Virus record (IMG/VR): IMGVR_UViG_3300035698_035306
DNA: 64,000 nt
Direction: 5' to 3' (one strand)
From: an uncultured virus (IMG/VR IMGVR_UViG_3300035698_035306)
Lineage: Duplodnaviria; Heunggongvirae; Uroviricota; Caudoviricetes
Each line of letters opens with the position of its first letter. Positions within the stretch are counted from its first letter, which is position 1. The notes below the pieces were generated by a model. That model was not told the origin of the DNA. It searched no databases and worked only from the letters and a program-made list of their open reading frames with translations. Below are positions 5,323 to 33,755 of this stretch, in pieces. Made by a program: the position numbers and the translations under genes.

Positions 5323-5323
5323 T

Positions 5324-8941: not shown

Positions 8942-9463
8942 TTACTTAGCTAACATATCAGCTGCACAACTTGCAGCCCATGCTTCTGGTTTAGTTCTAC
9001 ACTTAAAGCCAAGTGATTTAATGTAACCGACTCCTGCGTCATGAGCTACATTACTTTGATGCCTGTCATTAGGGTTTAAATCAAGGTCAACAGTTATAAT
9101 TCTCTTACCAACTGCAGGTAGAATTTCAAGTGCAGTGTCTGCTGAATCTTGAACCTCTTTCCACATTCTTGGGAAAAGTGTATCTTTCCAGAACTTATCG
9201 TTCTTTGTGTTTGCTTTCGCTTTATCGTAATCTTCTTTCTTAGCTCTGATTTTCTTTTCAGAATATCTTTGAAAGATAATATGGCCGCCGTTTCCAGGAT
9301 GCACAAAGCAAATTACGGTTACGAATTTAGTATGTCTGCGATGATTTAAGCTATCACTACCTACATAAATGTCAACTTCAGGGTTTTCCCGAATGTAATC
9401 TTTTACGTATTGTTGAACATCGTCAATAATACGTCCACCGAATTGTTTAAATTGTTTCATCAT
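8942..9463 (-). CDS. RNase H-like YkuK/DUF458 family protein
   Basis: IYVGSDS, R-W-EV, DLDLN, KPEAWAASCAAD; start MMKQF with GGAGG RBS (ORF-track extension overlaps a tRNA). Confidence 0.8.
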   Translation of the reverse strand: MMKQFKQFGGRIIDDVQQYVKDYIRENPEVDIYVGSDSLNHRRHTKFVTVICFVHPGNGGHIIFQRYSEKKIRAKKEDYDKAKANTKNDKFWKDTLFPRMWKEVQDSADTALEILPAVGKRIITVDLDLNPNDRHQSNVAHDAGVGYIKSLGFKCRTKPEAWAASCAADMLAK

Positions 9464-9481
9464 TATTCCTCCATCTTTTTG

Positions 9482-9565
9482 TGACCATAGAGAGACTCGA
9501 ACTCTCAAGCTTTTTAGAGCGGCAGATTCTTAGTCTGCTGTGTTTGCCAATTTCACCATACGGCC
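9482..9565 (-). tRNA. tRNA-Leu(AAG)
   Basis: GCAGA-CTAAGAA-TCTGC, long variable arm. Confidence 0.85.
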
Positions 9566-9584
9566 ATGGTTGTTTATTTATTTG

Positions 9585-9660
9585 TACCCCTGGTCGGATT
9601 CGAACCGACACAATCTCCTGGGTCTAAACCAGGCGCCTTTACCATTTTAACCACAGGGGT
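9585..9660 (-). tRNA. tRNA-Leu(TAG)
   Basis: Cloverleaf, loop TTTAGAC. Confidence 0.9.
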
Positions 9661-9685
9661 AGTTATTGTATTGCATCTATTGTTG

Positions 9686-9759
9686 TATTCCTAGTGAGAT
9701 TCGAACTCACACTGAACGGGGCTTAAACCCGATGCCTCTGCCAGTTGGGCTACAGGAAC
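9686..9759 (-). tRNA. tRNA-Leu(TAA)
   Basis: Loop TTTAAGC. Confidence 0.88.
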
Positions 9760-9764
9760 ATGTT

Positions 9765-10079
9765 CTATTTATATCTTTCAAGAACTCTTGCTCTTTTTTC
9801 AGGAGACATTTTACAAAGAACGTTTTCTCCTGGTGGTCGTGAACTTCTTTCACCACCATAAGTAATTAAAAATTCGTATTCACCATTTTCTTCAAAATGT
9901 TTAGATTTAATCTTCTGCCAATATTCGTGACTTAATAAATGCACTTCAATTGTTTTGTGATATTCATTATAGGTTAGATTATATCTTTCACCTACAATAA
10001 CAAACTCAACAAGCTTCATATTATAACCTTGTTCTTCTATTTGCTTTAATACATTAGTTATTATATTTGTTGTTTCCAT
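9765..10079 (-). CDS. hypothetical protein within tRNA operon
   Basis: ORF track. Confidence 0.6.
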   Translation of the reverse strand: METTNIITNVLKQIEEQGYNMKLVEFVIVGERYNLTYNEYHKTIEVHLLSHEYWQKIKSKHFEENGEYEFLITYGGERSSRPPGENVLCKMSPEKRARVLERYK

Positions 10080-10222
10080 TATCTTTAGTATTTAGCTACC
10101 AGAGTAGCAATTTATATTACTTTTCAGTGATTTTAGCTACCAGGGTAGCTATGTTTATAATAGACCATATATGAGTCATTTCTGTAATATTTCAGTGAAA
10201 TTGCTCATATATGAGTCATTTG

Positions 10223-10308
10223 TAGCCCGAATCGGAATCGAACCGACACGTCCATTACTGAACACTGGATTTTAAGTCCAGCGCGTCTACCAGTTTCACC
10301 ACCGGGCC
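10223..10308 (-). tRNA. tRNA-Leu(TAA)
   Basis: Loop CTTAAAA, long variable arm. Confidence 0.92.
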
Positions 10309-10321
10309 GTCTTTATTATTG

Positions 10322-10396
10322 AGCAGTATAACAGATTCGAACTGTCACCTTCTGGGTGGAAGCCAGATATGCTTTGCCGTTAAACACCAATACTGC
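10322..10396 (-). tRNA. tRNA-Gly(TCC)
   Basis: Loop CTTCCAC. Confidence 0.88.
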
Positions 10397-10439
10397 AGTT
10401 GTCAAGGACAAAATGTCTTATAGAATGTCCTTGATACTG

Positions 10440-10512
10440 AGCGAAATGTGGGAATCGAACCCCGTCCTCTGGTTGGAAACCAGATGCTTTCAGCCATTAA
10501 GCTACATCTCGC
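10440..10512 (-). tRNA. tRNA-Gly(TCC)
   Basis: Loop TTTCCAA. Confidence 0.88.
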
Positions 10513-10584
10513 ATGGAGTTGCTAACTTCTAACAAATGAATAAATTCACTTTAAAGATGGGGAGTTAAAAGCCAACAACAGTTG

Positions 10585-10657
10585 AGCAGAATACCAGATT
10601 CGAACTGGCGTTTCCAGATTGGCAACCTGGTGCACTAACCAACTATGCTAATTCTGC
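10585..10657 (-). tRNA. tRNA-Gly(GCC)
   Basis: Loop TTGCCAA. Confidence 0.9.
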
Positions 10658-10662
10658 GTTTG

Positions 10663-10734
10663 CTCCTCGACAAGGGGTCGAACCTTGGACCTACTGGTTA
10701 ACAGCCAGTTGCTCTACCACTGAGCTATCGAGGA
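10663..10734 (-). tRNA. tRNA-Asn(GTT)
   Basis: Loop CTGTTAA. Confidence 0.93.
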
Positions 10735-10738
10735 ATGT

Positions 10739-10918
10739 TTACATTAACATGAACTTAAGCTTTAATTTAGCTTTGTCATATTTACTTTTAGTTTTTTCAA
10801 ACTCTTCATTTGATACATTGTTCTTATAATTCGAACTCTGTACTCTTTTCTTTAAAAATTCAACATATAATTTATGTTCTTCCAAAGAATTACGTTCCAC
10901 CTTTTTCTTTGTTTTCAT
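10739..10918 (-). CDS. small basic protein, 59 aa (MKTKKKVERNSLEEHKLYVEFLKKR...)
   Basis: Translated by hand; fills the gap between two tRNA-Asn genes. Confidence 0.6.
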   Translation of the reverse strand: MKTKKKVERNSLEEHKLYVEFLKKRVQSSNYKNNVSNEEFEKTKSKYDKAKLKLKFMLM

Positions 10919-10992
10919 GAGGGCCGGGAGAATTTCGAAATCTCGACATCTAGGTTAACGGCCTAGTGCTCTGCCTCTGAGCTACCAACCCA
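10919..10992 (-). tRNA. tRNA-Asn(GTT)
   Basis: Loop CCGTTAA. Confidence 0.82.
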
Positions 10993-10996
10993 TGTG

Positions 10997-11069
10997 AGCT
11001 TACGAACGGGGTCGAACCGATGACCGGCTCATTACAAGTGAGCTGCTCTACCAACTGAGCTACGCAAGC
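10997..11069 (-). tRNA. tRNA-Thr(TGT)
   Basis: Loop CTTGTAA. Confidence 0.92.
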
Positions 11070-11160
11070 ATTTTAAAAAGTGTAATAAGATGCACAAAAT
11101 ACATTAAATCCTGTCAGGTTTAATATAAATGAATCCCGTTGTGCATCATAATACACCTTG

Positions 11161-11233
11161 AGCTGTGAATGAGATTTGAACTCATGACCTTTTCCGTACC
11201 AGGGAAACGCTCTTCCAACTGAGCTATCAAAGC
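11161..11233 (-). tRNA. tRNA-Thr(GGT)
   Basis: Loop CTGGTAC. Confidence 0.9.
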
Positions 11234-11237
11234 AAGT

Positions 11238-11361
11238 ATACTACTAAAAGTTGTTTGTGACTGTGTTCAAGACAGTTGCCTAACCACTTGGCTATCTACG
11301 CTATTAGCGTGGAATTGGATTCGAACCAATGTTACTAGATTTTAGTTATTCTAAGTAGTAT
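11238..11361 (-). ncRNA. Y-RNA-like ncRNA: ACUUAGAA stem enclosing a circularly permuted tRNA (T arm, looped acceptor stem, D arm, anticodon arm)
   Basis: ATACTACTTAGAATAACTAAAA...ATTGGTTCGAATCCAAT TCCACGC-TAATA-GCGTAGA TAGCCAAGTGGTTAGGC ACTGT-CTTGAAC-ACAGT...TTTTAGTAGTAT. Confidence 0.75.
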
Positions 11362-11364
11362 TTG

Positions 11365-11436
11365 CCGGCAACGGGAGATTCGAACTCCAAACTTCGGCGT
11401 GACAGGCCGATATGTTACCATTACACTACGCTGCCG
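11365..11436 (-). tRNA. tRNA-Asp(GTC)
   Basis: Loop CTGTCAC. Confidence 0.9.
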
Positions 11437-11453
11437 TTGTAGTATATTATTAG

Positions 11454-11537
11454 AGCAGATAGTTGGATTCGAACCAACGTGGAATTACTTCAGCGGATTT
11501 GCAATCCGCCGCCTTCGACCTCTCGACCATATCTGCA
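11454..11537 (-). tRNA. tRNA-Cys(GCA) with long variable arm
   Basis: Loop TTGCAAA, U73. Confidence 0.85.
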
Positions 11538-11624
11538 TTTTAATAAAGCTGTCGGTTATCTTTTTTAAAAACTCAGCAGGAACCTTGTTTATAAAAAATC
11601 CTGATGATAACCTTTCAGCGTTAG

Positions 11625-11696
11625 TGGAGCTTACGGTAATCGAAACCGTGTCTTCTGGGTGCAAGCCAAATGTAATAGCCACTATACGAAAGCCCC
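11625..11696 (-). tRNA. tRNA-Ala(TGC)
   Basis: GGGGCTT acceptor with G3.U70, loop CTTGCAC. Confidence 0.9.
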
Positions 11697-11741
11697 GTTT
11701 TAGTTTTTTGATTGTCCAATAGAAACTAATAAACTATTTGG

Positions 11742-11810
11742 CGGTACCGAAGGGTATCGAACCCTCTCATCCAGCAGAGACAGTGCCGGCGCTTACCATC
11801 AGCCGATACC
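11742..11810 (-). tRNA. tRNA-Asp(GTC), atypical
   Basis: CCGGCA-CTGTCTC-TGCTGG; short D region. Confidence 0.65.
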
Positions 11811-11816
11811 AAATAG

Positions 11817-11898
11817 AGGAGGATAACGGAATCGAACCGTCTGCACGAATGCAGGCCTAGCGTTCAAAACTAGTTAAGCACCTGGCTTGCTATCCTCC
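11817..11898 (-). tRNA. tRNA-Ser(TGA)
   Basis: Loop TTTGAAC, long variable arm. Confidence 0.8.
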
Positions 11899-11911
11899 AT
11901 GGATAGTTTTG

Positions 11912-11996
11912 AGGAGAATACTGGAATTGAACCAGTGCAACGATTAAGTTGGACTCGGTTTAGCAAACCGGCACATTACCACTCTGTCAATTCTCC
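11912..11996 (-). tRNA. tRNA-Ser(GCT)
   Basis: Loop TTGCTAA, long variable arm. Confidence 0.88.
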
Positions 11997-12055
11997 ATAG
12001 ATACAATACGTCAAAGAACTATTTGTTCTAATTTTTTTTGCTTAGGTTTATTCCT

Positions 12056-12093
12056 AAAAAAAGTCTGGTTAAAAATTAATTTAGCCAGACTTT
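12056..12093 (-). terminator. attenuator terminator 1
   Basis: AAAGTCTGGCTAAA-loop-TTTAACCAGACT+T7. Confidence 0.85.
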
Positions 12094-12116
12094 AAAAATA
12101 TTGTTGAATTACTTCA

Positions 12117-12236
12117 TCATATTCGAATATCTGGCTTCACGTTCCCTGCATCAGCATTACAATCACTGCCTAAGGCTAGCGATAACGTCGATGTCAACGT
12201 GTTTAAGAGATTTGATATGTTAGTAATTGTCTTCAT
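12117..12236 (-). promoter_or_regulatory. leader peptide 1 MKTITNISNLLNTLTSTLSLALGSDCNADAGNVKPDIRI
   Basis: Codons 8-32 encode only S,N,L,T,A,G,D,C, the tRNAs downstream; AGCCAGA antiterminator. Confidence 0.85.
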
Positions 12237-12336
12237 TTGTTTGTTGTTTATATATTGTTGTTTGTTTGATGTTCTATACTAAAGTATCACAAAGTTTCGC
12301 AATAATTAAGTTTATTTCTGTTTTAATTACGTTTTT

Positions 12337-12594
12337 TTATTTAACGTATTGTTTAGCAGCACGATTAGCATCAGACAGTCTATCCCATGCGGTATGCAGT
12401 GCTCTTTCGAGTTCTCCTAAACCTATATATGAGATTTTAGATGAACTGTTTATTAAATCTTTGTGCATTTGTTCTGTTTCGGCTAGATATTTCTTCAGGA
12501 AATTAAGATGCTTTTCTACTTCCTTGTTACTTTTAATAAATTTCTTATCATCACCTTCATTTACAAACTCGTCAAATGTTTTAATATTTTCCAT
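12337..12594 (-). CDS. putative internal head protein (MENIKTFDEFVNE)
   Basis: N-terminal motif; TATATA upstream. Confidence 0.65.
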   Translation of the reverse strand: MENIKTFDEFVNEGDDKKFIKSNKEVEKHLNFLKKYLAETEQMHKDLINSSSKISYIGLGELERALHTAWDRLSDANRAAKQYVK

Positions 12595-12631
12595 AATCTA
12601 ATTACTTTTTATAACTAGATTATATATTGTG

Positions 12632-12704
12632 TTGGCCCTACCGGAATCGAACCGATGACCTTTTCGTTATGAGCGAACTGCTCTACCAACTGAGCTAAGG
12701 GCCA
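12632..12704 (-). tRNA. tRNA-Ile2(CAT), probable lysidine AUA reader
   Basis: GGCCCT acceptor, loop CTCATAA, elongator-type body. Confidence 0.75.
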
Positions 12705-12772
12705 ATGTCGCAATGTACTCCCCACATTAAAAGTTTATCTAAAGAGCTTTCCTTTAAATCTGGCATTGCGTG

Positions 12773-12844
12773 TAGCCCCAAGGAGAATCGAACTCCTATT
12801 TACAGGTTGAAAACCTGGCGTCCTAACCGTTAGACGATGGGGCC
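12773..12844 (-). tRNA. tRNA-Glu(TTC)
   Basis: Loop TTTTCAA. Confidence 0.9.
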
Positions 12845-12905
12845 ATGTATATTAACTAAGAAGGTTGGTTAAACCTTGAACCATAATGTCATAGTTAATA
12901 AATGG

Positions 12906-12979
12906 TTGGTCTGGAGGGGCTCGAACCCTCGACCCGATGATTAAGAGTCACCTACTCTGCCAACTGAGCTACAGACCAA
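12906..12979 (-). tRNA. tRNA-Lys(CTT)
   Basis: Loop CTCTTAA. Confidence 0.88.
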
Positions 12980-12989
12980 TGTATTATAG

Positions 12990-13062
12990 TAACCCATACG
13001 AGATTCGAACTCGTGACTTCAGATTGAAGGTCTGACGGCTTAACCAGCTTGCCGAATGGGCT
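12990..13062 (-). tRNA. tRNA-Glu(TTC)
   Basis: Loop CCTTCAA. Confidence 0.85.
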
Positions 13063-13067
13063 ATTTG

Positions 13068-13135
13068 TAACCATACAAGGAATCGAACCTCAATTTCTGC
13101 TGCAGACAGCGTCCTAACATTGGACGATATGATTA
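13068..13135 (-). ncRNA. Glu-like tRNA mimic with shortened anticodon arm
   Basis: Intact D and T arms; GCTGTCTGCAGC in place of a 7-nt anticodon loop. Confidence 0.55.
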
Positions 13136-13140
13136 AATAG

Positions 13141-13208
13141 AATTTCACTAATAGTTAACGTGTCAAATTAAAAGTTTGGTGTTTGTTTTTAGTTTTCTAA
13201 GTGAAATT
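13141..13208 (-). ncRNA. ACUUAGAA-stem ncRNA
   Basis: AATTTCACTTAGAAAACTAA...TTAGTGAAATT. Confidence 0.7.
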
Positions 13209-13212
13209 ATAG

Positions 13213-13299
13213 TAACCCCGCTGGGACTCGAACCCAGGACTCCTCGGTTAAAAGCCGAGTGCTCTACACCTTTCGGATATCCAACTGAGCTACGGAGTT
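13213..13299 (-). tRNA. tRNA-Lys(TTT) with a hairpin inserted in the D loop
   Basis: Loop CTTTTAA; D loop contains ATATCC-GAAA-GGTGT. Confidence 0.85.
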
Positions 13300-13337
13300 A
13301 TTATTAGTTATCAATATTTTAAAGAACTTGTTTTAGT

Positions 13338-13410
13338 AGCGCATACGAGAATCGAACTCGTGTTCCCACCGTGAAAGGGTGATGTCCTTAAACCACTAGA
13401 CGAATGCGCC
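13338..13410 (-). tRNA. tRNA-Glu(TTC)
   Basis: Loop CTTTCAC. Confidence 0.88.
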
Positions 13411-13416
13411 ATTTAG

Positions 13417-13489
13417 TTACTCATCTCAGGTTCGAACTGAGGACTCCCTGGTTAAAAGCCAGGTGCTCTACCAACTGAGCTAATGAGTA
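13417..13489 (-). tRNA. tRNA-Lys(TTT)
   Basis: Loop CTTTTAA. Confidence 0.9.
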
Positions 13490-13536
13490 ATCTATTTTAA
13501 AATCAAAATTTTAATGAACATGTAAGGTATAAACCT

Positions 13537-13572
13537 AAAAAAAGCCTGAAGAGTAATTCTTCAGGCTTGTTA
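13537..13572 (-). terminator. attenuator terminator 2
   Basis: TAACAAGCCTGAAGA-ATTAC-TCTTCAGGC+T7. Confidence 0.88.
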
Positions 13573-13593
13573 AATATTGTTTGACGCTAGATG

Positions 13594-13683
13594 TTAATCT
13601 GCGTGTTTATCTAACAAGCCTGCAGGTTCCTTCTCCTTTTTTATAGAAGTTGTTATTGCTGATATGTTAGTTAAGTTTCTCAT
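13594..13683 (-). promoter_or_regulatory. leader peptide 2 MRNLTNISAITTSIKKEKEPAGLLDKHAD
   Basis: ATA AAA AAG GAG AAG GAA control codons; CAGGCTTGTTA antiterminator. Confidence 0.88.
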
Positions 13684-13780
13684 TGTGTTTATTATTATCG
13701 TTGTTTATATATTGTTGTTTGTTTGATTGTTCTATACTAAAGTAAGCATTTGTTTCGCAATACCAAAGTTTATTTCTGAT

Positions 13781-14629
13781 TTAAATCAGTTTTTTTAATT
13801 TGTCTTTTAATTTATCAACCTCTAGCTTTAATCTAGCTGCAGATGCTTTTTTACCATCTCGTAAATCTTTCCACCTTTGTATAGATGTTTTCTCAGATTC
13901 GATACGTTTTTTATTATAAGCTGATTCGTCGTAGTTATAATTCTTATCTGCACCTCTTGATACAATGACGTCCCATTCAGGGTAATCTAACCAACCTGAG
14001 AATTTATCAGGATTCTCGTTTTTCTTTTTAATCAATAAAGCTCTTATATCAGGATTCTTCATCTTCCTGTCTTCTGAGTACTCATCCTTTAATACCTTTA
14101 TGCGAGATTCTAATCTTATTATGTCTTGCTGAATCTTATCGCCTTTACTTAGTTTCTTAAGTCTAGCTTTTAAAACTGCCTGTACCGTACTATTACCAGT
14201 CTTAGGTAAAGATGTACTTGTTAGATATCTATAATGAGGTCTCTGTACTAACCCCATTGCAATTATCACTTGTGTTTGTATCTGATAGGTCTTACCATCT
14301 CTTTTTACACTTGCTGACATAGAAAGTGAACCTTTAGTATTTTTTCTAAAATCTACTTCAACTAATTTATCAGAAGATTGAGTATATTTCTCAATTGACT
14401 TTATTAAATCCAACGTCGCAACTAATCTAGTTTGCTGTTCATCAAATTTAGACCAAGATGAAGCTTCTCCTTTTAAAGCTTTTTCTTCAATCCAAGCTCT
14501 TGTTTTCGCGATAACATCAAGAATTACTGGTTCAGCTTCTAATAATATTTTACTTAAAAGAGGATTGCCTTTAAACTGGTTCTTCTCATTTAAAAACTCG
14601 CTATATGATTCTGCTATGAATTTTGTCAT
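13781..14629 (-). CDS. putative internal head protein (MTKFIAESYSEFLNE)
   Basis: N-terminal motif. Confidence 0.6.
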   Translation of the reverse strand: MTKFIAESYSEFLNEKNQFKGNPLLSKILLEAEPVILDVIAKTRAWIEEKALKGEASSWSKFDEQQTRLVATLDLIKSIEKYTQSSDKLVEVDFRKNTKGSLSMSASVKRDGKTYQIQTQVIIAMGLVQRPHYRYLTSTSLPKTGNSTVQAVLKARLKKLSKGDKIQQDIIRLESRIKVLKDEYSEDRKMKNPDIRALLIKKKNENPDKFSGWLDYPEWDVIVSRGADKNYNYDESAYNKKRIESEKTSIQRWKDLRDGKKASAARLKLEVDKLKDKLKKLI

Positions 14630-14773
14630 TTCTGCTGGAAAATAATTTTAAATATATATTGAAATATCTGGCCAGCCTAGCCCTCTCTAGAGTAGGCTTA
14701 CCGCTGGGAAGCTTAGATTTATTGTATTGGGGTTTGTCGCCTTTGTTTCAAAAATAGTCAAAAAAACTTTGAA

Positions 14774-15184
14774 TTAATCCCAATGTTTTCCATATAATCT
14801 GTCTATCTCTTTCTCTTGGAACTTGTTAACTTCTTCGTTTTTTATGATACGATTCTCTAAACCATTTATGAATAGAATAAGCTCCTTTTTTTCCTTTTCT
14901 TCTTTTTCCAAAAGTTTACTTAAATCTGAATCAAGTTCATTTTTCCAATCTGATGCTCGGTTATATCGTTTATCTGACCGTTGCATAAGTACTTCTATTT
15001 CAGCTTTCCTTTCCTTCTGTTCTATTTTGATATCCTTTGTATTATCAAAAATACTTTGGTAAGCTAAAGATGCACTTATTAAAATACCTCCGAAGAAGAT
15101 TAATATTGCGGCATACTCTTTTACGCGATGTACCCATTTGTCAATTCCTTTAAAACTCTTTTCGGTTTTATTATCATCCTCCAT
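14774..15184 (-). CDS. single-pass membrane coiled-coil protein
   Basis: TM segment AAILIFFGGILISASLAY followed by coiled coil. Confidence 0.65.
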   Translation of the reverse strand: MEDDNKTEKSFKGIDKWVHRVKEYAAILIFFGGILISASLAYQSIFDNTKDIKIEQKERKAEIEVLMQRSDKRYNRASDWKNELDSDLSKLLEKEEKEKKELILFINGLENRIIKNEEVNKFQEKEIDRLYGKHWD

Positions 15185-15209
15185 TTTTAGTTAGTACTTA
15201 TTTTAATTG

Positions 15210-15282
15210 TAACTCTGGTGAGACTCGAACTCACAACCTCCCGGTTCGTAGCCGGGTGCGCTATCCATTTGCGCCACAGAGC
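15210..15282 (-). tRNA. tRNA-Arg(ACG)
   Basis: Loop CTACGAA. Confidence 0.92.
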
Positions 15283-15302
15283 TGTATGTAGTATATATAA
15301 AA

Positions 15303-15613
15303 AATAGACGAGGTAATTAGGCTCCTGTTACGTTTTTCAACGTCAACAACATTTGTCTATTCTCCTCAACCCGACTATTATAGACCGTTGCTAAATCTAA
15401 GTCTGTTTGAGTTTCACTCCGGTAGTGAAAACGATTGATTATGGGTCTTTCGGGGTTACTGGTTTGTAAGGTGGTACTATTAACCCTTTTTCCTTTTGTC
15501 TTCCAGTTACCTGGTTTTGGTAACCTTACCTAACAGCTTTAACTATCAATCTCCTACCTGCACTTTAGTGGCCAAATTTCCTCTCCGTAGAGCGTTGTTG
15601 TCACTCGTCTATT
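15303..15613 (-). ncRNA. rnpB: RNase P RNA (compact)
   Basis: P1 AATAGACGAG/CTCGTCTATT; CR-I GAGGAAATTTGGC; P2 CAACAAC/GTTGTTG; CR-IV TAGACAAATG; CR-V AACAGGAGCCTAATTA. Confidence 0.8.
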
Positions 15614-16077
15614 TCTATTCCTCTATCCAATCTGTGTAAAATTCTTAAGGTTCTACCATTTGGATGGATATACTTATTATTATTTAAAAATTCTTTATTA
15701 TCTAATTGTAAAAATTCATTTGCATATGTTCCGATTGCACCACTTCTTGAAATACCAGCTGCACAATGTACAATTAACAAATTACATTTTTCTTTATCAA
15801 TACTTTCTAAGAACTTAATTAATTTCTTACCTTGCTCAAATGAAAAACCCTTAGCAGTATATGTTGCGGTTTCCAATTCAGCTTTCTCAATATCATCAAA
15901 ATCGAAATTCAAAACATTCACATGGTCTTCTTTAAACCAATGTTGGTAACCTTGTTCAAATGTTTCCACTACAGAAATTAAAGCTAACTTTGTTTTCTCT
16001 TCAATGTTACCATCATTAAGATTATGTTTCTTCATTGTTTCATCGAACTGCCTCTGTGGTACTATTAAAATCTTCAT
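15601..16077 (-). CDS. tyrosine/dual-specificity phosphatase-like protein
   Basis: F-DD acid loop and VHCAAGISRS P-loop. Confidence 0.85.
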   Translation of the reverse strand: MKILIVPQRQFDETMKKHNLNDGNIEEKTKLALISVVETFEQGYQHWFKEDHVNVLNFDFDDIEKAELETATYTAKGFSFEQGKKLIKFLESIDKEKCNLLIVHCAAGISRSGAIGTYANEFLQLDNKEFLNNNKYIHPNGRTLRILHRLDRGIEIDE

Positions 16078-16263
16078 CTATTCAAAGTTAATTTGTTTAT
16101 TCTCTCGTCTGTTGTAGGTCTTCTTAGACTTATGTGTCGCATGCATAGATATAAATCCATTACCGAACTCTAATTCTGCCTCTCTACTGCCTCTTCTGTT
16201 TGCTTTGATATAATCAATATCTGTCAGTGTAGGTTTCTTTATGTTCTTTTTGCGCTTTGCCAT
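16078..16263 (-). CDS. small basic protein, possible ArfA-like ribosome rescue factor
   Basis: KANRRGSREAELE...HKSKKTYNRR, loosely resembling the ArfA KGKGSY tail. Confidence 0.4.
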   Translation of the reverse strand: MAKRKKNIKKPTLTDIDYIKANRRGSREAELEFGNGFISMHATHKSKKTYNRRENKQINFE

Positions 16264-16331
16264 TATTTCTATTTATTATTAATTACAAGATAAAAGTAAC
16301 AAAAAATATTCAGAAGCCAAAGTATTAACCT

Positions 16332-16359
16332 AAAAAAAGCGGTCCGAAGACCGCTTTTT
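16332..16359 (-). terminator. intrinsic terminator after the TROVE-like gene
   Basis: AAAAGCGGTC-TTCG-GACCGCTTTTTTT. Confidence 0.85.
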
Positions 16360-16376
16360 GTATATAGTTATAATGA

Positions 16377-18305
16377 TTAAGCTATTACAGAGTAACGCTT
16401 GTCATCGTAAATACTCCAAAGTTCATCTTCTGGGTTTACACTTCCTGTCTTAATTCCGCGAAGAATTTGAGAAAGTACACCTTCACTGAAGCCGCTTACT
16501 AATAGAATATTTGGTATACCTTTAATTTGCTGTGCAAATGAATCAGGTAGTCTTTGAATACCCCAGAACACCATAAGTGGGTTCCATCCGATACTGTATG
16601 CAAGTTCAAGGGCCTCCTTTGGAGACTTACCTGTATTGTTTTCCATATCAGTAATGTAAAGTAATGCGTTTGGTAAATCTTCAACATGCATCTTATTGTC
16701 TTTCACTAATTTTACAAAGTGTTGGATTGAAGCGAACATATTTGTTGAACTAATATCACCTGGGTTTGAACGAGTTATGCTTTCAAAGTTCTCAGTAAAA
16801 GTTTTCTTTTCACTTAATATGTTATAAGCATTCACCTTCTTAGTATAAGCGTTAGCTGCAACATAAGAGTTTGGTGCTTCATTTACATATTTAGACTTAC
16901 CAATAATTTTGAAGTCTGAACTGAACCAGCCGAAAGTATTTCTAAATTCTTGAACTGGGTTTCTTGTACTGAACACAATTGCTAATGATGCTGCTACTTG
17001 CCAGCATGTTAAATGACTAAATTTATTATCAGCTACGCTTGAGTTACCCCAATAGCTTCTGGTAATACTTGAACTCATTGAACCACTACCATCAATGATT
17101 GGGAATACGTTCGCAACAAGGTCCATCTTTTCAATCATAGATTGGTAAGTGTTGTTAACCATTTGCTTAGTAGTATTTCCTTTAAGCATACTTGACATTA
17201 AATCTACAGTCTGTACTCCTGTTGACTTAACTTTGAATTGCTTCATTAATTTCTCCTTAGCTTCTACGTCATCGTTAGATGCAGCTTCTCTAAGTTGGTC
17301 GGCAATATTTTCTTGACCATTTTCCCATTCAATGAAGTAATTACCAAGTTCTCCCCATTTCTCTTTCGCAACTAACTTGTCATCATCTTTGAAACATACT
17401 GTCTTAGACACCATGAATCTTTGACCAGTTGTAAGTTTGTTAAGGAACTCAATGAAGTCAGACTTAGCCATAGTTAAAACTGACTTAGAACTGATAGCTT
17501 GTTCAGCTGTATCTTGTAGTTTTCTAAAGTTCTTGTATTGTTCAACAGACCAATCCATTCTCTTACAGAATCCTAAAATCCAAGTGTTAACTAATTTTTG
17601 CTTGTCAAGTGTAATAGTTTGCTTATCTCTTGGGTAAGAAACTACATCACCAGTCTTCACTGTAATCTTTTCTGTACCATTTTTAACAAGTACGCCATTA
17701 AGCTTTACCCAAGCTTTACCTTCAGGTAATGTCCATTTGAAAGAATCAACATCTTTTCTTGACTTAATCACTTTCTTAGTAGTTCTAGACTTGCCAGACA
17801 TGTACTTAGGTAAGTGCTTCGCAATAAGGTTTACATTCTTTCCTGCTAGAATTTGACTAGCTAAGTAGTCATATACTACAGCTTCATTAGGAAACAGAAC
17901 TTCTGTCTTAATAAGCTTACCAGTATTTCTATCAGTAGTGTTTTGATAAAACATAAGGTTGTCAAGAACTGTAAATTCTACGATAGCTCTAATGTTTCTT
18001 GCAAAACTTTCTGGCATTTTAGTACTCCACCATCTTAAGATACTTCTAAAAGTCTCTCTTTCTTGGGCACCACCCGTTGGTGATTTAATACCAAGTTCAT
18101 CAAGTAAGTTGTGTTGTCTACTGATGTCTCCAACGTGTAGCATCACTCTTTCAAGCATGTTTACCATTTCATTCTTATTACATTCCACAAATGACTTGTT
18201 AAGCATTGCGTGAATATCTCTATCATTACCACCTTTGGTGGTTCTAAGAGCTTGTAACACAGTTAATGTTACTGGAAATTCTTTTCTGTTTGTTTCGTTT
18301 TTCAT
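16377..18305 (-). CDS. DUF2828/TROVE(Ro60)-like helical + vWA domain protein
   Basis: GGAQERETFR (DUF2828-type GGxGERxxFR), AKHLPK, vWA MIDAS IDGSGSM, STN, ITDME, FW, VSGFS. Confidence 0.72.
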   Translation of the reverse strand: MKNETNRKEFPVTLTVLQALRTTKGGNDRDIHAMLNKSFVECNKNEMVNMLERVMLHVGDISRQHNLLDELGIKSPTGGAQERETFRSILRWWSTKMPESFARNIRAIVEFTVLDNLMFYQNTTDRNTGKLIKTEVLFPNEAVVYDYLASQILAGKNVNLIAKHLPKYMSGKSRTTKKVIKSRKDVDSFKWTLPEGKAWVKLNGVLVKNGTEKITVKTGDVVSYPRDKQTITLDKQKLVNTWILGFCKRMDWSVEQYKNFRKLQDTAEQAISSKSVLTMAKSDFIEFLNKLTTGQRFMVSKTVCFKDDDKLVAKEKWGELGNYFIEWENGQENIADQLREAASNDDVEAKEKLMKQFKVKSTGVQTVDLMSSMLKGNTTKQMVNNTYQSMIEKMDLVANVFPIIDGSGSMSSSITRSYWGNSSVADNKFSHLTCWQVAASLAIVFSTRNPVQEFRNTFGWFSSDFKIIGKSKYVNEAPNSYVAANAYTKKVNAYNILSEKKTFTENFESITRSNPGDISSTNMFASIQHFVKLVKDNKMHVEDLPNALLYITDMENNTGKSPKEALELAYSIGWNPLMVFWGIQRLPDSFAQQIKGIPNILLVSGFSEGVLSQILRGIKTGSVNPEDELWSIYDDKRYSVIA

Positions 18306-18320
18306 TGTCTTTAAATTTTA

Positions 18321-18429
18321 ATCTAACTAAAAAATTTTAATGCCGGGATTGAACCAGCGACCTTTTTGTGATTAGCAAAATGCTCTACCAACTGAGCGAA
18401 TTAAATTGTTTAGTTGTTCTAAGTTAGAT
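18321..18429 (-). ncRNA. Y-RNA-like ncRNA: ACUUAGAA stem extending a tRNA-like cloverleaf
   Basis: ATCTAACTTAGAACAACTAAA..GCTCAGTTGGTAGAGC..TTTTG-CTAATCA-CAAAA..GCTGGTTCAATCCCGGC..TTTAGTTAGAT. Confidence 0.75.
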
Positions 18430-18433
18430 ATTA

Positions 18434-18570
18434 GGTGGCGAGGGGTGGATTCTAACCACCGATATCAATCGTATGAAAATTGTGCATTAACTTTAAACTA
18501 ATGTTTATGTTTTCTAAGTGGTATACTTGTAAAACCACTATAAGTGTTTGTTTTACTGTGCTACCTCGCC
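18434..18570 (-). ncRNA. tRNA-like RNA (CAT loop) with the ACUUAGAA module inserted in the D loop
   Basis: GGCGAGG/CCTCGCC acceptor, GGTGG-TTAGAAT-CCACC T arm, insert TAGTGG..CCACTTAGAAAAC. Confidence 0.7.
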
Positions 18571-18634
18571 ATAATTAAAAATGAATTTCTATGCACCTTA
18601 CTGGTCTATGAACATTCTAACGGTCCCGTATATC

Positions 18635-19093
18635 TTAAAGTGTCTTCTGAAGTTCCTTAAGTTGCGCTTTCGCTTCAACTAGTTTTTCATCAGCTGACTT
18701 GTTTGCTTCAATGAAGCCTTCAAGTTCTTTCACTTTGTTTTTGTTGTTTCTGTACTCAGAAGTACTTCTTCTATATCTTAAAGCTGCTCTAAGGAAGATA
18801 TACATATCTAAGTGCGTGTACTTTACATTTTCATCAAGTTCTGTCTTAATAACAAATGATGTTGATGTGTCTCCTAAGAAGTCATCATTACAGGCAGTAT
18901 TAATTACTCTTGCAAGTTCAAGCATTTTAAGCTTAACTGACTTCTCTGAATATAATGAAGCTTTCATAAGGTCTGCCCATGTTGCTACATCACCTGAAGT
19001 AAATTTTCCCATTGTTACACCAACGCCGTGTTCCTTGAACTTTACGGTTACTTCTTTTTCTTTTTCTATTGTAATTGTGTTAAAATCGTACAT
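18635..19093 (-). CDS. hypothetical protein
   Basis: ORF track; in the Val/Ile-TROVE operon. Confidence 0.7.
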   Translation of the reverse strand: MYDFNTITIEKEKEVTVKFKEHGVGVTMGKFTSGDVATWADLMKASLYSEKSVKLKMLELARVINTACNDDFLGDTSTSFVIKTELDENVKYTHLDMYIFLRAALRYRRSTSEYRNNKNKVKELEGFIEANKSADEKLVEAKAQLKELQKTL

Positions 19094-19124
19094 AGTTTTT
19101 CTTTCTTTTTAAAGTTTTTAATTG

Positions 19125-19198
19125 TAGGAATACCTGGGCTCGAACCAGGGGCCTTCTCGGTATCAGCGAGATGCTCTAACCAACTGAGCTATACTCCT
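19125..19198 (-). tRNA. tRNA-Ile(GAT)
   Basis: Loop CTGATAC. Confidence 0.92.
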
Positions 19199-19207
19199 AA
19201 GTGTATA

Positions 19208-19411
19208 TTACACTTTCTTCATTTTCATTACCTGCACCGGCTTAGTACCATCAAATGCTACTTTGTAAACAAAGCCTTTGAAATTCACAGGTAAATCATC
19301 TGCTGTGTAACAATCGTTCCATACTGGACTGTTATTGATATTCTTGCCGAAGTTCTTATCTTCTACTTTAGAATATACTGATTCTGTTGTTAATTTTGCG
19401 TTCTTTCCCAT
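19208..19411 (-). CDS. hypothetical protein
   Basis: ORF track. Confidence 0.6.
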   Translation of the reverse strand: MGKNAKLTTESVYSKVEDKNFGKNINNSPVWNDCYTADDLPVNFKGFVYKVAFDGTKPVQVMKMKKV

Positions 19412-19436
19412 CTTTAATCTTTTTAAATTTGTTTGT

Positions 19437-19508
19437 AGTTCCTATCGGGATTGAACCGATGACCTCTTGCATGTAAGGCAAGCGCTACTTCCACTGAGCT
19501 AAGGAACT
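19437..19508 (-). tRNA. tRNA-Val(TAC)
   Basis: Loop CTTACAT. Confidence 0.92.
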
Positions 19509-19616
19509 ATGAATATCATGGCACAACCCGATGCAATTCATTTTGTAAGTACATTTCTGTACTGCGCACATATAGTAGTGATTCTTAAGTCTTCCTATAT
19601 GACATCTTCATGATAG

Positions 19617-19691
19617 TAGTCTCTAACGGATTCGAACCGTTGACTTCCTCGGTGTAAACGAGGTGCTCTGAACCAACTGAGCTAAGAGACT
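19617..19691 (-). tRNA. tRNA-Val(TAC)
   Basis: Loop TTTACAC. Confidence 0.92.
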
Positions 19692-19711
19692 ATTTGTAAT
19701 TGTATAAACCT

Positions 19712-19748
19712 AAAAAAATCCAATCGGCTATTTGCTGACTGGATTTTA
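19712..19748 (-). terminator. attenuator terminator 3
   Basis: AAAATCCAGTCAGC-AAATA-GCCGATTGGA+T7. Confidence 0.85.
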
Positions 19749-19797
19749 AAATTTCTTTGGGTTCTATATGTTGATAAAAAACTTTCTTAAATCCAAT

Positions 19798-19884
19798 CTA
19801 TGCGCAAATAATACTTTCCACTACGATGACAGCTACTGTTTCAGTAGAGCGTATAGGGACGATATTTTTTAAATTGCGTTGCAT
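19798..19884 (-). promoter_or_regulatory. leader peptide 3 MQRNLKNIVPIRSTETVAVIVVESIICA
   Basis: V/I-rich; GATTGGATTT antiterminator overlapping the stop codon. Confidence 0.85.
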
Positions 19885-19938
19885 TGAATTTGTCTGTTTT
19901 TTAGTGGACAACTTATATATCCGTGATAAAATAATAAA

Positions 19939-19993
19939 ATCTAACTAAAATGTTTTTTCCAATAAAAAGTATTTTTAGTGTTCTAAGTTAGAT
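19939..19993 (-). ncRNA. minimal ACUUAGAA-stem ncRNA
   Basis: ATCTAACTTAGAACACTAAAA...TTTTAGTTAGAT. Confidence 0.7.
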
Positions 19994-20040
19994 AGCTGAA
20001 TATCAAAATACCTTTCACAGTATATGATATTAAAATTAAA

Positions 20041-21010
20041 AACTTGAGACTACAGTTTTTATAGTATTGCTTTCGATGCCTGTACCAGTTCGATGCGACT
20101 CTCACTGTTGGGGACTTGTCCACTTTCCTGAAGGAAAGATACAATACCGACGCTTCCTTTTTTTAAGTGCTGGCTGTTGCACTGTCATAATGAGCGTACT
20201 CAACGTTTCTTCTCGGGTTAGACTTTTACATCTATGCATCGTCGCTAAACGATTACCTCTGTGTCTACATTAAACATTTCCACCTTGCGAGTTTCCATGT
20301 TCTTCATTGTACCGAAGTACTGAAGATTTAAGCGACTTTTACTCTCATTACCGAATGAGTCTTTGCATATAATTTTAAAGTAATGCCCGTTTGACGGGGC
20401 GACCTCTTGATTAATAGTCAAGTGCTCTTCTCTGAGCTAAATACAAAGTATTTCCATTGTTGAGCGCTCATTCAGAGCATCGTTTCCTTTTGAGAAACAA
20501 TATACACAACTCAACGTGCATTTCGGCTTGCGGCCTACTGTACGATATTTCACGTTTTCAGGTTTACTTTGGAGAAAAAACCTTTCTGCGTTTATAATTC
20601 TATATAGCCTTATGCTTGCGGCATCAGACAGTATAAATACTCCTTGTCAATTCGAATTTCGTTAAGTTGGCATAGTTAGTAATATAGTCGCCAAACTAAA
20701 TTAGAAATGCTCCTTACCTCAAGAGAGGGGCTTACATTTCATATCCTTACCAAAGGACTACTAACTCTTAACTTACATCTTTTCTCCAACTTTTGAGATT
20801 GAAGCTTACCGTTTGGTTCGGTAAATGATGAAGCTTGCTTGAATAAACCATTTCTGGCAGAGGGCTATGGAGCTCCTCTCTTTTACATCTTGCGATGTAT
20901 TATTAATTTCCAAATGACGAATCATTCAACGTAAAGAACAAGTCTAAACGTCTGGTCCGAAGACTAAGACTTTTACTCCGAAGAGTAAAACCGATTCAAG
21001 CATCGGTAAA
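20041..21010 (-). ncRNA. large structured ncRNA (~1 kb), GOLLD-like, with an embedded tRNA-like domain (~20380-20445)
   Basis: No credible ORF; higher GC; many UUCG/GCAA tetraloop hairpins on the minus strand; own promoter and boxA; lies among tRNA genes. Confidence 0.65.
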
Positions 21011-21112
21011 ATTTTTCTAATATTTTAAAGAACGTGTGTTATAATTTTCTAAGATAAAAGTACAACATTTTTTCGCAATAAAAAAGTTTATTTTGAAAAA
21101 GTTAAAAATTTA

Positions 21113-21201
21113 ATTCTACTAAATTTAAAATTTATGATACGCCAGCTGGCCACCGTAGTGGACAGAGCGTTTTTTAATTTTTTAGTGATTCTAAGTAGAA
21201 T
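21113..21201 (-). ncRNA. ACUUAGAA-stem ncRNA with a GC-rich apical domain
   Basis: ATTCTACTTAGAATCACTAAA...TTTAGTAGAAT. Confidence 0.7.
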
Positions 21202-21207
21202 ACTTTG

Positions 21208-21280
21208 TAGCGGGACTCGGACTCGAACCGAGGACCTCCAGGTTATGAGCCTGGCGAGCTGCCGCTGCTACCACCCCGCA
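21208..21280 (-). tRNA. tRNA-fMet(CAT)
   Basis: Initiator-type GTAGCAG..AGCTCG D arm, unpaired 1:72, loop CTCATAA. Confidence 0.85.
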
Positions 21281-21295
21281 ATATATTTTTATTTG

Positions 21296-21369
21296 TAGCG
21301 AGGGACGGACTTGAACCGCCGACCTCCAGGTTATGAGCCTGGCGAGCTACCAACTGCTACCACCTCGCA
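21296..21369 (-). tRNA. tRNA-fMet(CAT)
   Basis: Near-duplicate of the previous gene. Confidence 0.85.
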
Positions 21370-21744: not shown

Positions 21745-21748
21745 ATTT

Positions 21749-25470: not shown

Positions 25471-25506
25471 AAAAAAAGTCCAACTTCATAAATGAGGTTG
25501 GACTTC
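25471..25506 (-). terminator. attenuator terminator 4
   Basis: AAGTCCAACCTCAT-TT-ATGAAGTTGGAC+T7. Confidence 0.85.
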
Positions 25507-25530
25507 GTATTTAAAATTATTTATAACTTT

Positions 25531-25608
25531 CTAATACCCTATACTAACCTCCTGAGTGACTCTTGGTCTCGGAAAAAATCTAAATGATATGTTAGTAGTT
25601 GTGTTCAT
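25531..25608 (-). promoter_or_regulatory. leader peptide 4 MNTTTNISFRFFPRPRVTQEVSIGY
   Basis: TTT AGA TTT TTT CCG AGA CCA AGA control codons; GAGGTT antiterminator. Confidence 0.9.
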
Positions 25609-25695
25609 GTTAATGTTTATTATATATTGTCTATTATTAATTGTTCTATACTAAAGTAAGACAAAGTTTCGCTATTTGAAAGTATTTTTCTGTTT

Positions 25696-31931: not shown

Positions 31932-31973
31932 AAAAAAAGCCTAAAGAACATTTTGAGAATGTAGCTTTAGGCT
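31932..31973 (-). terminator. attenuator terminator 5
   Basis: AGCCTAAAG..ACATT-CTCAA-AATGT..CTTTAGGC+T7. Confidence 0.85.
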
Positions 31974-32010
31974 GTTATATTTGAAAGGAGGTGCTGTGAT
32001 TTATCTACCG

Positions 32011-32088
32011 TCAATTTAACATTATACTACACTCTTGGTTTTGATACCAATAATGATGAAGTGCGTTATGTATGTTTAAATTGTTCAT
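32011..32088 (-). promoter_or_regulatory. leader peptide 5 MNNLNIHNALHHYWYQNQECSIMLN
   Basis: CAT CAT TAT TGG TAT control codons; AGAGTGTAGT antiterminator. Confidence 0.9.
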
Positions 32089-32178
32089 TGTTTCTATTTG
32101 TTAAGATATTATATATCTATGTTTGTTTGTTATTCTATACTAAAGTAAGATAAAGTTTCGCAATTTGAAAGCTTTTTC

Positions 32179-33293: not shown

Positions 33294-33325
33294 AAAAAAA
33301 GGCTTAAGAAGTAAATCTTAAGCCA
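33294..33325 (-). terminator. attenuator terminator 6
   Basis: GGCTTAAGA-TTTACT-TCTTAAGCC+T7. Confidence 0.88.
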
Positions 33326-33352
33326 TCGTTTATGTAAAATATTTTATATCAA

Positions 33353-33424
33353 CTATGAACCTAAGAATTTCCCAACAGTTTGCTGTTGTTGCATTTGCAT
33401 AGTATATTGATAAGTTCTAGTCAT
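33353..33424 (-). promoter_or_regulatory. leader peptide 6 MTRTYQYTMQMQQQQTVGKFLGS
   Basis: ATG CAA ATG CAA CAA CAG CAA control codons; TCTTAGGTT antiterminator. Confidence 0.9.
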
Positions 33425-33444
33425 TGTTTCTATTTGTTTGAGTA

Positions 33445-33500
33445 TTATATATTGTTGTTTGTTTGATTGTTCTATACTAAAGTAAGATAAAGTTTCGCAA
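33445..33500 (-). promoter_or_regulatory. tandem promoter cassette TTGCGA-N-TACTTTAGTATAG followed by ATATA(T)A; also at ~12250-12303, 13706-13760, 25620-25672, 32110-32163
   Basis: Near-identical sequence upstream of five of the six leaders. Confidence 0.75.
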
Positions 33501-33755
33501 TTACAAAGCTTTTTCTTCTTCTATTTCACATAGAGTATGTAAAGCGCTTTCTAGGCTTACAACTACATCGTAAAGTTTTTTATTGGGTTTTATACTATAA
33601 TTCTTAATTAAATCTGTATAGACAGTATTTAACTTTTTATTCTTTGAACCGGCTATTAAATGCGGCTGTGGTTTTAAATTAAAATCAAATGTCTTCTTCT
33701 GCTTCATTTCTAACTTAGGTACCCAATCTGTGCTACCCGATACGTTATCATCCAT
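33501..33755 (-). CDS. hypothetical protein
   Basis: ORF track. Confidence 0.55.
   Translation of the reverse strand: MDDNVSGSTDWVPKLEMKQKKTFDFNLKPQPHLIAGSKNKKLNTVYTDLIKNYSIKPNKKLYDVVVSLESALHTLCEIEEEKAL

Follow-up and report, generated by a model that had tools for sequence, protein, structure and literature searches.

The stretch of DNA analysed here, hereafter the window, comprises 64,000 nucleotides of an uncultured virus of the Caudoviricetes (IMG/VR record IMGVR_UViG_3300035698_035306), and the element under study is a short leader at positions 13,537 to 13,683 that stands ahead of a cluster of lysine, glutamate and CAT-anticodon transfer RNA (tRNA) genes. Leader and genes together are termed here the KE unit (Lys/Glu/CAT). 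All its parts lie on the minus strand. A promoter-like motif comes first, then a short open reading frame (ORF), a terminator and the tRNA genes, and the parts lying upstream of the first tRNA are the following:

13737..13767, minus strand: promoter-like motif, TTTG-N19-TACTTTAG, within the block GCGAAAC-N9-TACTTTAGTATAGAA
13594..13683, minus strand: leader ORF of 29 codons plus TAA, predicted peptide MRNLTNISAITTSIKKEKEPAGLLDKHAD
13627..13644, minus strand: sensor run, codons 14-19 of the leader, ATA AAA AAG GAG AAG GAA
13608..13625, minus strand: antiterminator arm A, inside the ORF, with its core at 13623-13613 (CAGGCTTGTTA)
13559..13576, minus strand: antiterminator arm B, with its core at 13573-13563 (TAACAAGCCTG), overlapping the 5' arm of the terminator
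13535..13568, minus strand: intrinsic terminator, a stem-loop at 13568-13542 (11 pairs, 5 of them G-C, loop of 5) followed by a T7 tract (13541-13535)

The sensor run spells lysine both ways and glutamate both ways, together with AUA, and constitutes a cluster of putative regulatory codons cognate to the tRNAs encoded downstream, where the existence of a Lys(CTT) gene alongside Lys(TTT) fits the use of both lysine codons. It is the longest run of own-operon codons in this leader, and runs of six are attained with a probability of about 0.001 in 100,000 simulated leaders. Codon reading of 13683-13594 bears out a first-pass annotation of this DNA, according to which all three Ile codons of the leader (codons 7, 10 and 14) are ATA and are followed by AAA AAG GAG AAG GAA. 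The ORF possesses a start and an in-frame stop 5' of the terminator, the stop lying 26 nt before the terminator stem. It is preceded by an A-rich stretch in which a Shine-Dalgarno sequence is absent, and it is presumably translated.

Between the leader ORF and the genes that it would control lies the intrinsic terminator, whose hairpin (−16.0 kcal/mol) has the longest stem, and is hence listed first, among the terminator-like sites scanned in 9000-26000. The same annotation had described an 11-bp perfect antiterminator at this locus. The 11-nt arms CAGGCTTGTTA and TAACAAGCCTG are exactly complementary, as claimed, and they form part of an 18-nt, 89% complementary inverted repeat that extends over the 5' arm of the terminator. 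The resulting A:B duplex has a predicted energy of −23.3 kcal/mol, compared with a shuffle mean of −7.5 (standard deviation 1.9) and with none of 1000 shuffles equalling it, and it shares at least 7 nt with the 5' arm of the terminator, making the two structures mutually exclusive. Folding of the whole leader reflects this competition: at full length the terminator forms (−35.4 kcal/mol, z −4.97, 0/200 shuffles as good), and in RNA cut before the 3' arm of the terminator the antiterminator takes its place (−30.3 kcal/mol, z −5.15, again 0/200). The stop codon of the ORF and a small hairpin are contained in the 27-nt loop closed by the A:B helix.

The genes that follow the terminator are:

13416..13489, minus strand: tRNA-Lys(TTT), called by ARAGORN and Rfam
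13336..13410, minus strand: tRNA-Glu(TTC), called by ARAGORN and Rfam
13212..13299, minus strand: second tRNA-Lys(TTT), with a 14-nt D-loop insertion, mislabelled Ser(AGA) by ARAGORN
13064..13137, minus strand: degenerate Glu-like tRNA with an anticodon loop 4 nt short, missed by ARAGORN and Rfam
12989..13062, minus strand: tRNA-Glu(TTC), called by ARAGORN and Rfam
12903..12978, minus strand: tRNA-Lys(CTT), called by ARAGORN and Rfam
12772..12844, minus strand: tRNA-Glu(TTC), called by ARAGORN and Rfam
12631..12704, minus strand: CAT tRNA, read as tRNA-Ile2 (lysidine type, AUA) from its similarity to E. coli tRNAs
12337..12594, minus strand: ORF of 85 amino acids ending the unit, with no family match

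This inventory agrees with the two Lys(TTT), one Lys(CTT), three Glu(TTC) and one CAT tRNA reported earlier, and adds to them the degenerate Glu-like gene at 13137-13064, which is probably a pseudogene. The second Lys(TTT) gene has a weak Rfam tRNA score (29.8 bits); it aligns from end to end with the neighbouring Lys(TTT) and has an identical anticodon loop. Its 14-nt D-loop insertion can form a small hairpin of its own, and this insertion might matter for escape from nucleases, or the gene might be dead.

KE has five paralogues in the window, which makes six units in all. Five of the six were located through a shared promoter block and similar N-termini, and the sixth (VI) by reading upstream of the Val tRNAs. 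Besides KE, they are:

33294..33507, minus strand: Gln unit; leader 33424-33353 (MTRTYQYTMQMQQQQTVGKFLGS), terminator 33324-33294, then three Gln(TTG) genes
31932..32170, minus strand: YHW unit (Tyr/His/Trp); leader 32088-32011 (MNNLNIHNALHHYWYQNQECSIMLN), terminator 31973-31932, then two Tyr, His and Trp
25471..25681, minus strand: FRP unit (Phe/Arg/Pro); leader 25608-25531 (MNTTTNISFRFFPRPRVTQEVSIGY), terminator 25506-25471, then an HNH-endonuclease ORF, Ser(GCT), Phe, Arg(TCT) and three Pro
19709..19884, minus strand: VI unit (Val/Ile/Arg); leader 19884-19798 (MQRNLKNIVPIRSTETVAVIVVESIICA), terminator 19747-19709, then two Val, Ile(GAT), Ile(AAT) and Arg(ACG)
12056..12309, minus strand: SX unit (Ser/Ala/Cys/Asp/Thr/Asn/Gly/Leu); leader 12236-12117 of 39 codons (MKTITNISNLLNTLTSTLSLALGSDCNADAGNVKPDIRI), terminator 12093-12056

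The SX leader precedes 16-17 tRNAs for exactly the eight amino acids that give the unit its name, and the six units together provide tRNAs for 19 amino acids, Met being the exception. When codons are matched to tRNAs with simple wobble rules and relaxed ARAGORN calls, the leaders contain 71 own-operon codons out of 163, against a mean of 29.0 over the 720 possible leader-operon assignments; the true assignment is the only one to reach 71, the next best attaining 63. The outcome is much the same with the unrevised ARAGORN labels (70, with a permutation mean of 28.8 and 62 as next best). The matching codons are clustered in every leader, the longest cognate runs being 4 codons in Gln (P <1e-5), 5 in YHW (P 3e-5), 8 in FRP (P <1e-5), 4 in VI (P 0.0085), 6 in KE (P 0.001) and 25 in SX (P <1e-5). 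The correspondence extends to synonymous codons: the leader of the Arg(TCT) operon has three AGA codons, and that of the Arg(ACG) operon has two CGC codons, CGC being rare in this phage (14 of 11,974 codons).

Structural evidence recurs along with the codons. Folds truncated at the 3' end show an antiterminator in all six units, drawn from the segment just 3' of the cognate run, and it is also there that the best partner of the terminator 5' arm is found in each of them. For that pairing, the number of shuffles doing as well per 1000 is 1 in VI, 9 in SX, 19 in Gln and 22 in KE, so that the antiterminator is supported individually in four of the six units. Terminators other than that of KE are predicted from minimum-free-energy folds, with energies of −12 to −15 kcal/mol. 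The block GCGAAAC-N9-TACTTTAGTATAGAA is common to five of the six leader units, VI lacking it, and the more general pattern TTTG-N17-21-TANNTTWG is found 26 times in the window against 6.6 expected, a count reached in none of 100 shuffles; many of the other matches to it are near-identical in sequence and lie on both strands. Given the promoter consensus of the Bacteroidota, the motif at 13767-13737 would presumably act as a promoter, and the host would presumably be a member of that phylum.

These observations have a bearing on an alternative explanation, namely that the hairpin is an ordinary constitutive terminator or RNA-processing site behind an untranslated ORF, with the tRNAs being expressed through leaky read-through or an unrecognised promoter. 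The lack of a Shine-Dalgarno sequence is in keeping with it, and hairpins of this kind are common, the strict terminator scan of 9000-26000 returning 13 sites when 8.6 are expected. However, a promoter, a gap holding nothing save a 29-codon ORF and a strong terminator some 200 nt on form an arrangement that recurs six times; ORF codons follow the downstream tRNAs in a manner matched by one permutation in 720, in long runs, and do so also in the relatives considered below; the promoter pattern has no match in the 45 nt that separate the KE terminator from the first tRNA; and the antiterminator lies far beyond chance. We thus deem this alternative quite improbable.

The short ORFs could also be regarded as functional micropeptides, members of a paralogous family with a conserved N-terminus whose composition has no relation to regulation. 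A TNIS motif is indeed identical in three of the six leaders, with looser versions in YHW (LNI) and VI (KNI), and similar starts are encountered in the relatives. Past some eight residues, however, the peptides have nothing in common other than mirroring the tRNA set of their own operon, and the N-terminus is near-identical at the DNA level, so that selection on the protein is not indicated. There is hence very little probability in this explanation.

Outside the window, eight further units with the same layout were identified in five related phage records: three in L157, two in G001 and a single long leader in each of G003, G004 and L054. The leaders of L157 match their own operons in 20/27, 14/24 and 20/35 codons, compared with 2-6 off the diagonal, and those of G001 in 25/40 and 13/33, compared with 4 and 10. 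The grouping of tRNAs in these relatives differs from that of the window, and the leader codons shift accordingly; the G004 leader, for instance, contains no Thr or Ala codons, in a genome whose tRNA genes for these two amino acids are located elsewhere. In-frame cognate codons are present in all 14 units seen in the window and its relatives. This last point tells against direct binding of tRNA by the leader RNA, as in a T-box or some other riboswitch that operates with no ribosome. A terminator and an antiterminator ahead of translation-related genes constitute a T-box layout as well, but the signal here resides in the reading frame, the element falls short of T-box size (149 nt, counted from the ATG to a point slightly beyond the T tract), and the 46 Rfam matches in the window are all to tRNA (RF00005), with no other family represented and neither the T-box nor the leader families (Trp_leader, His_leader, Thr_leader, Leu_leader and others) reaching gathering score. 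We therefore accord a riboswitch only a very slight probability.

In view of its anatomy, of the five paralogous units and of the eight units in relatives, the region is probably a leader-peptide transcription attenuator gating a phage tRNA operon, and the proposal of the first-pass annotation that it senses Lys, Glu and AUA codons finds support in silico, from internal and comparative evidence of unusual strength. Synthesis of the Lys, Glu and AUA-Ile tRNAs would probably be confined to times when decoding of the corresponding codons is slow. Directly visible in the sequence are the leader ORF with its codon run, the terminator and the helix that competes with it, the cognate tRNA genes next to them, the paralogues and the relatives; ribosome-polymerase coupling, the sense in which the switch works and its physiological trigger are what we infer from them.

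The attenuator would work as follows. Transcription would begin at the promoter-like motif (~13767-13737), and a ribosome would translate the 29-codon leader as RNA polymerase moves ahead. If codons 14-19 are decoded fast, the ribosome would pass over arm A and arrive at the stop codon. Since this codon lies inside the A:B loop, a ribosome at the end of the ORF would prevent A:B pairing, leaving arm B to pair with the 3' arm of the terminator, and transcription would stop at the T tract (13541-13535). Conversely, scarcity of charged tRNA-Lys, tRNA-Glu or AUA-reading tRNA-Ile2 would stall the ribosome in the run just upstream of arm A; with usual footprint sizes, a ribosome held on codons 14-17 should leave this arm free. 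The A:B helix would then form, the terminator could not, and polymerase would read through into three Lys, three Glu and one Ile2-like tRNA genes. The new tRNAs would in turn relieve the stall, a negative feedback by which each set would be produced as demand requires. A mismatch with host codon usage, the decay of host tRNAs during infection or their cleavage by a defence nuclease could serve as the trigger.

The same attenuator might instead sense amino-acid starvation, or the general speed of translation, through tRNA charging, in which case it would tune tRNA synthesis and would not replace tRNAs that have been lost. Its anatomy is that of the classical attenuators, such as the trp and his leaders, which in textbook accounts respond to charging, and sequence by itself does not separate a lack of tRNA from a lack of charging. 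Yet extra tRNA is no cure for amino-acid starvation, so that nothing would be gained from a codon-specific pairing of leaders and tRNAs, and the pairing observed extends strictly to the choice among Arg synonyms and covaries in relatives. On balance, a starvation sensor appears improbable, and a sensor of tRNA supply remains our preferred interpretation.

Several observations weigh against this interpretation. The cognate fraction of the whole KE leader (9/28 codons against a background of 0.199, P 0.09) is not significant, falls to 8/28 (P 0.34) with ARAGORN's own labels and is the lowest among the six leaders. Lys and Glu are common in the phage, accounting for 10.2% and 7.4% of its codons, and the case for KE rests for this reason on the six-codon run, on the position of that run and on the family context. 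The geometry is tight, with 3 nt between the last sensor codon and the core of arm A, and a ribosome stalled on codons 18-19 may, with the usual footprint, cover the first bases of the arm. KE is the only one of the four leader terminators within 9000-26000 that the strict scan picks, and the antiterminators of YHW and FRP stand at chance level (209 and 485 of 1000 shuffles pair as well). The protector (1:2) hairpin, in which arm A would pair with the 5' portion of the leader, is likewise at chance level in KE (117/1000 shuffles) and does not exceed chance in the other five units (162-520/1000). As this pairing is unsupported, only three segments are described here, and an untranslated leader would default to read-through, unlike trp, which means that the switch requires tight coupling of ribosome and polymerase. 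Some tRNA genes also do without a leader: the two initiator-like tRNA-Met genes and the CTA suppressor in the window, and, among relatives, the tRNA groups of L159, L162, L163, L165, L166 and Tenacibaculum phage pT24, before which no leader was found. Finally, the window DNA occurs in sequencing runs labelled salt lake metagenome, and all 13 public runs listed are of DNA, with none of RNA.

A trp-like design with four segments was considered and rejected, pairing between the 5' leader and arm A being at shuffle level in 6/6 units. Natural variants that could inform on the pairing of the helices were sought in four DNA runs over 13480-33450, where the long pieces show 0 differing letters.

The identity of the CAT tRNA at 12704-12631 deserves separate consideration, for the first-pass annotation had called it a lysidine Ile2 on the strength of the ATA codons in the leader. 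The identity itself is upheld by the tRNA: its eight listed best E. coli matches are all annotated tRNA-Ile, and one of them, inspected in sequence, likewise has CAT as its anticodon and agrees in the first seven bases of the acceptor stem. The two other CAT tRNAs of the window, at 21207-21369 (minus strand), have no leader unit, resemble the E. coli initiator-type tRNA-Met (6/6 listed matches each, at four places per genome) and are read as putative initiators; a clear elongator tRNA-Met was not found in the window. The body of the tRNA at 12704-12631 is therefore nearer to tRNA-Ile(CAT) than to tRNA-Met, and it carries C4 and C5, in agreement with C4-G69 and C5-G68, which we take from the E. 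coli literature to be the acceptor-stem determinants of Ile2. An Ile2-like identity is thus supported independently of the leader. The codon argument fares less well, and ATA as a specific AUA sensor must be considered weak: ATA makes up 275 of the 857 Ile codons (32%) in 48 phage ORFs, it is present in five of the six leaders of the window and is thus not specific to KE, and one of the three ATA codons of KE falls in the N-terminal motif shared with other leaders, so that the leader alone says little about Ile2. Considering window and relatives together, Ile codons counted by hand are ATA in 5/5 cases in leaders of Ile2-like operons and in 3/12 cases in those of Ile(GAT)-type operons, a post hoc contrast (hypergeometric 56/6188, ~0.009) that is suggestive only. 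A CAT tRNA of L157 is 78% identical to the Ile2-like tRNA of the window, and both Ile codons of its leader are ATA.

The closest parallels of the KE leader are the multivalent attenuators of enterobacteria, such as the thr leader, with Thr and Ile codons, and the ilvGMEDA leader, with Ile, Leu and Val codons. Like them, it combines a short leader ORF, a codon run for several amino acids, a terminator and a mutually exclusive antiterminator seated on the 5' arm of the latter, and a stalled ribosome is here proposed to bring about read-through as it does there. It departs from them in controlling tRNA genes and not biosynthetic enzymes, so that the product would feed back directly on the decoding step that is sensed, in lacking a supported protector hairpin, and in being phage-borne and part of a set of six, among which almost the entire tRNA complement is shared out. 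With E. coli trpL it shares the principle that the position of a ribosome on a leader ORF picks between two folds, one of them a terminator. The trp leader, however, has four segments, senses one codon family and terminates when untranslated, whereas three segments are supported in the KE leader, which would read three codon families and default, when free of ribosomes, to the antiterminator. Attenuation that controls the translation machinery according to tRNA status is known also from the pheST (pheM) leader and from T-boxes, the latter binding uncharged tRNA directly with no need of a ribosome; in both instances the genes controlled encode synthetases, as opposed to the tRNA genes controlled here. 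A full-text literature search, whose coverage excludes subscription journals and older papers, returned no account of leader-peptide control of tRNA genes. The relevant passage of PMC3082878 mentions a tRNA operon only in another context.

A blastn comparison of the region with 50,697 phage records gave matches at tRNA genes only, and the shared promoter block has 0 matches in IMG/VR. The gene just upstream of the KE unit, which encodes 282 amino acids, has distant relatives (30-40% identity), the sole named one being in Tenacibaculum phage pT24, where a plain promoter and no leader precedes the few tRNAs. Loci of these relatives contain tRNAs in 2 of 66 metagenome cases (the contig of the window itself and L054) and in 8 of 60 viral ones. 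The motif that follows the terminator was matched at 32 loci, none of which has tRNAs, and these were judged to be chance matches. In record G004 (L162, 1322-1570), a long hairpin plus T tract and then Ala(TGC) and Gly(GCC) tRNAs come after a Gly/Ala-rich ORF of 57 codons, which may encode a small membrane protein or represent one more leader.

A role in the conflict with host defences provides one possible rationale for the system. The first-pass annotation had named Lys and Glu tRNAs as targets of PrrC/RloC-type nucleases. According to passages of PMC12409363, PrrC and the AriB nuclease of PARIS cut tRNA-Lys(UUU), cleavage of tRNA-Lys by AriB is affected by a base in the D-loop, and the tRNAs of phage T5 rescue infection; these passages support the claim for tRNA-Lys(UUU) and PrrC, but contain no mention of tRNA-Glu as a target, and the claim is in any case background and not evidence for the attenuator. 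Phage T5 resembles the phage studied here in bringing its own Lys and other tRNAs, but the work on T5 and PARIS, in the same passages, concerns the tRNAs themselves and does not describe a sensor that switches phage tRNA genes (PMC12409363). The window also encodes an RNA ligase of the T4 Rnl1 type.

The Rnl1 family is known for tRNA repair. It is conceivable, if rather doubtful at this stage, that the six independent demand-driven modules, which cover 19 of the 20 amino acids, form a counter-defence circuit in which the removal of a tRNA by a host nuclease (of PrrC, PARIS or retron type) or by shut-off turns on only the module holding its replacement, every leader gauging, one codon at a time, whether the tRNAs of the host can still be used. 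The presence of a Lys(TTT) copy with a D-loop insertion in the Lys/Glu/Ile2 module would fit such a circuit. So could the use of TAG or TGA as the stop codon in all but one of the six leaders, in conjunction with a CTA suppressor, as leaders ending in TAG could be overridden late in infection.

The suppressor in question is a tRNA with a CTA anticodon (amber suppressor) at 1392-1464 (minus strand). It has the top tRNA score in the window (74.7 bits), is nearest to the Trp tRNA of this phage (79%) and adjoins the gene for the Rnl1-type ligase. Stop codons in the leaders are TAG three times, TGA twice and TAA once, and in 48 long ORFs they are TAA 44 times, TGA three times and TAG once; TAG thus ends 1/48 ORFs as against 3/6 leaders, and ribosomes reading through it would enter or cross the terminators. 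The antiterminator pairing includes the stop codon in some units.

ARAGORN finds 43 tRNA genes in the window, all on the minus strand, and the surrounding genes, among them the Rnl1-type ligase, a nicotinamide adenine dinucleotide (NAD) salvage set, a TonB-dependent receptor, a Ro-like RNA-binding protein and an HNH endonuclease, point to a large phage. The NAD genes (1477-6496, 26187-29789 and 34218-35315) comprise NAPRTase, NAD synthase, a NadR-like nicotinamide mononucleotide adenylyltransferase/kinase and a PnuC transporter, and the same regions hold the TonB-dependent receptor, which has a signal peptide, and a second cytidylyltransferase-like gene; this toolkit may counter NAD-depleting defences. 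The HNH-endonuclease-like ORF (24694-25404, minus strand) sits between the FRP terminator and its tRNAs, with its 3' end overlapping the Ser(GCT) tRNA at 24656-24738 (minus strand), and looks like a mobile insertion into the FRP operon. Convincing ORFs are lacking from some 2.8 kb at 19950-22720 (minus strand). Promoter-like blocks are repeated there near 21090 and 21900, tRNA-like modules are matched by Rfam at 21751-21820 and 20377-20446, and the tRNA at 22346-22418 has an anticodon loop of 6 nt. Near this stretch lies the Ro-like gene (phrog_850, 16377-18305), whose 642-amino-acid product has no match in the phage records or in IMG/VR, and the tRNA-like modules of the stretch could be Y-RNA-like partners of it.

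Why and when phages make use of their tRNA genes is a matter of debate, with codon-usage matching, compensation for the decay of host tRNAs and evasion of defences that cut tRNAs as the candidate explanations. The leaders described here offer a practical gain for annotation, in that their codons predict the identity of ambiguous tRNAs in the operon, the CAT tRNA, as Ile2, being the case at hand. More generally, if the interpretation advanced here is true, this phage would gauge tRNA supply in real time, turning on each set of tRNA genes when the corresponding codons slow down, and the reach of leader-peptide attenuation would extend to tRNA genes.

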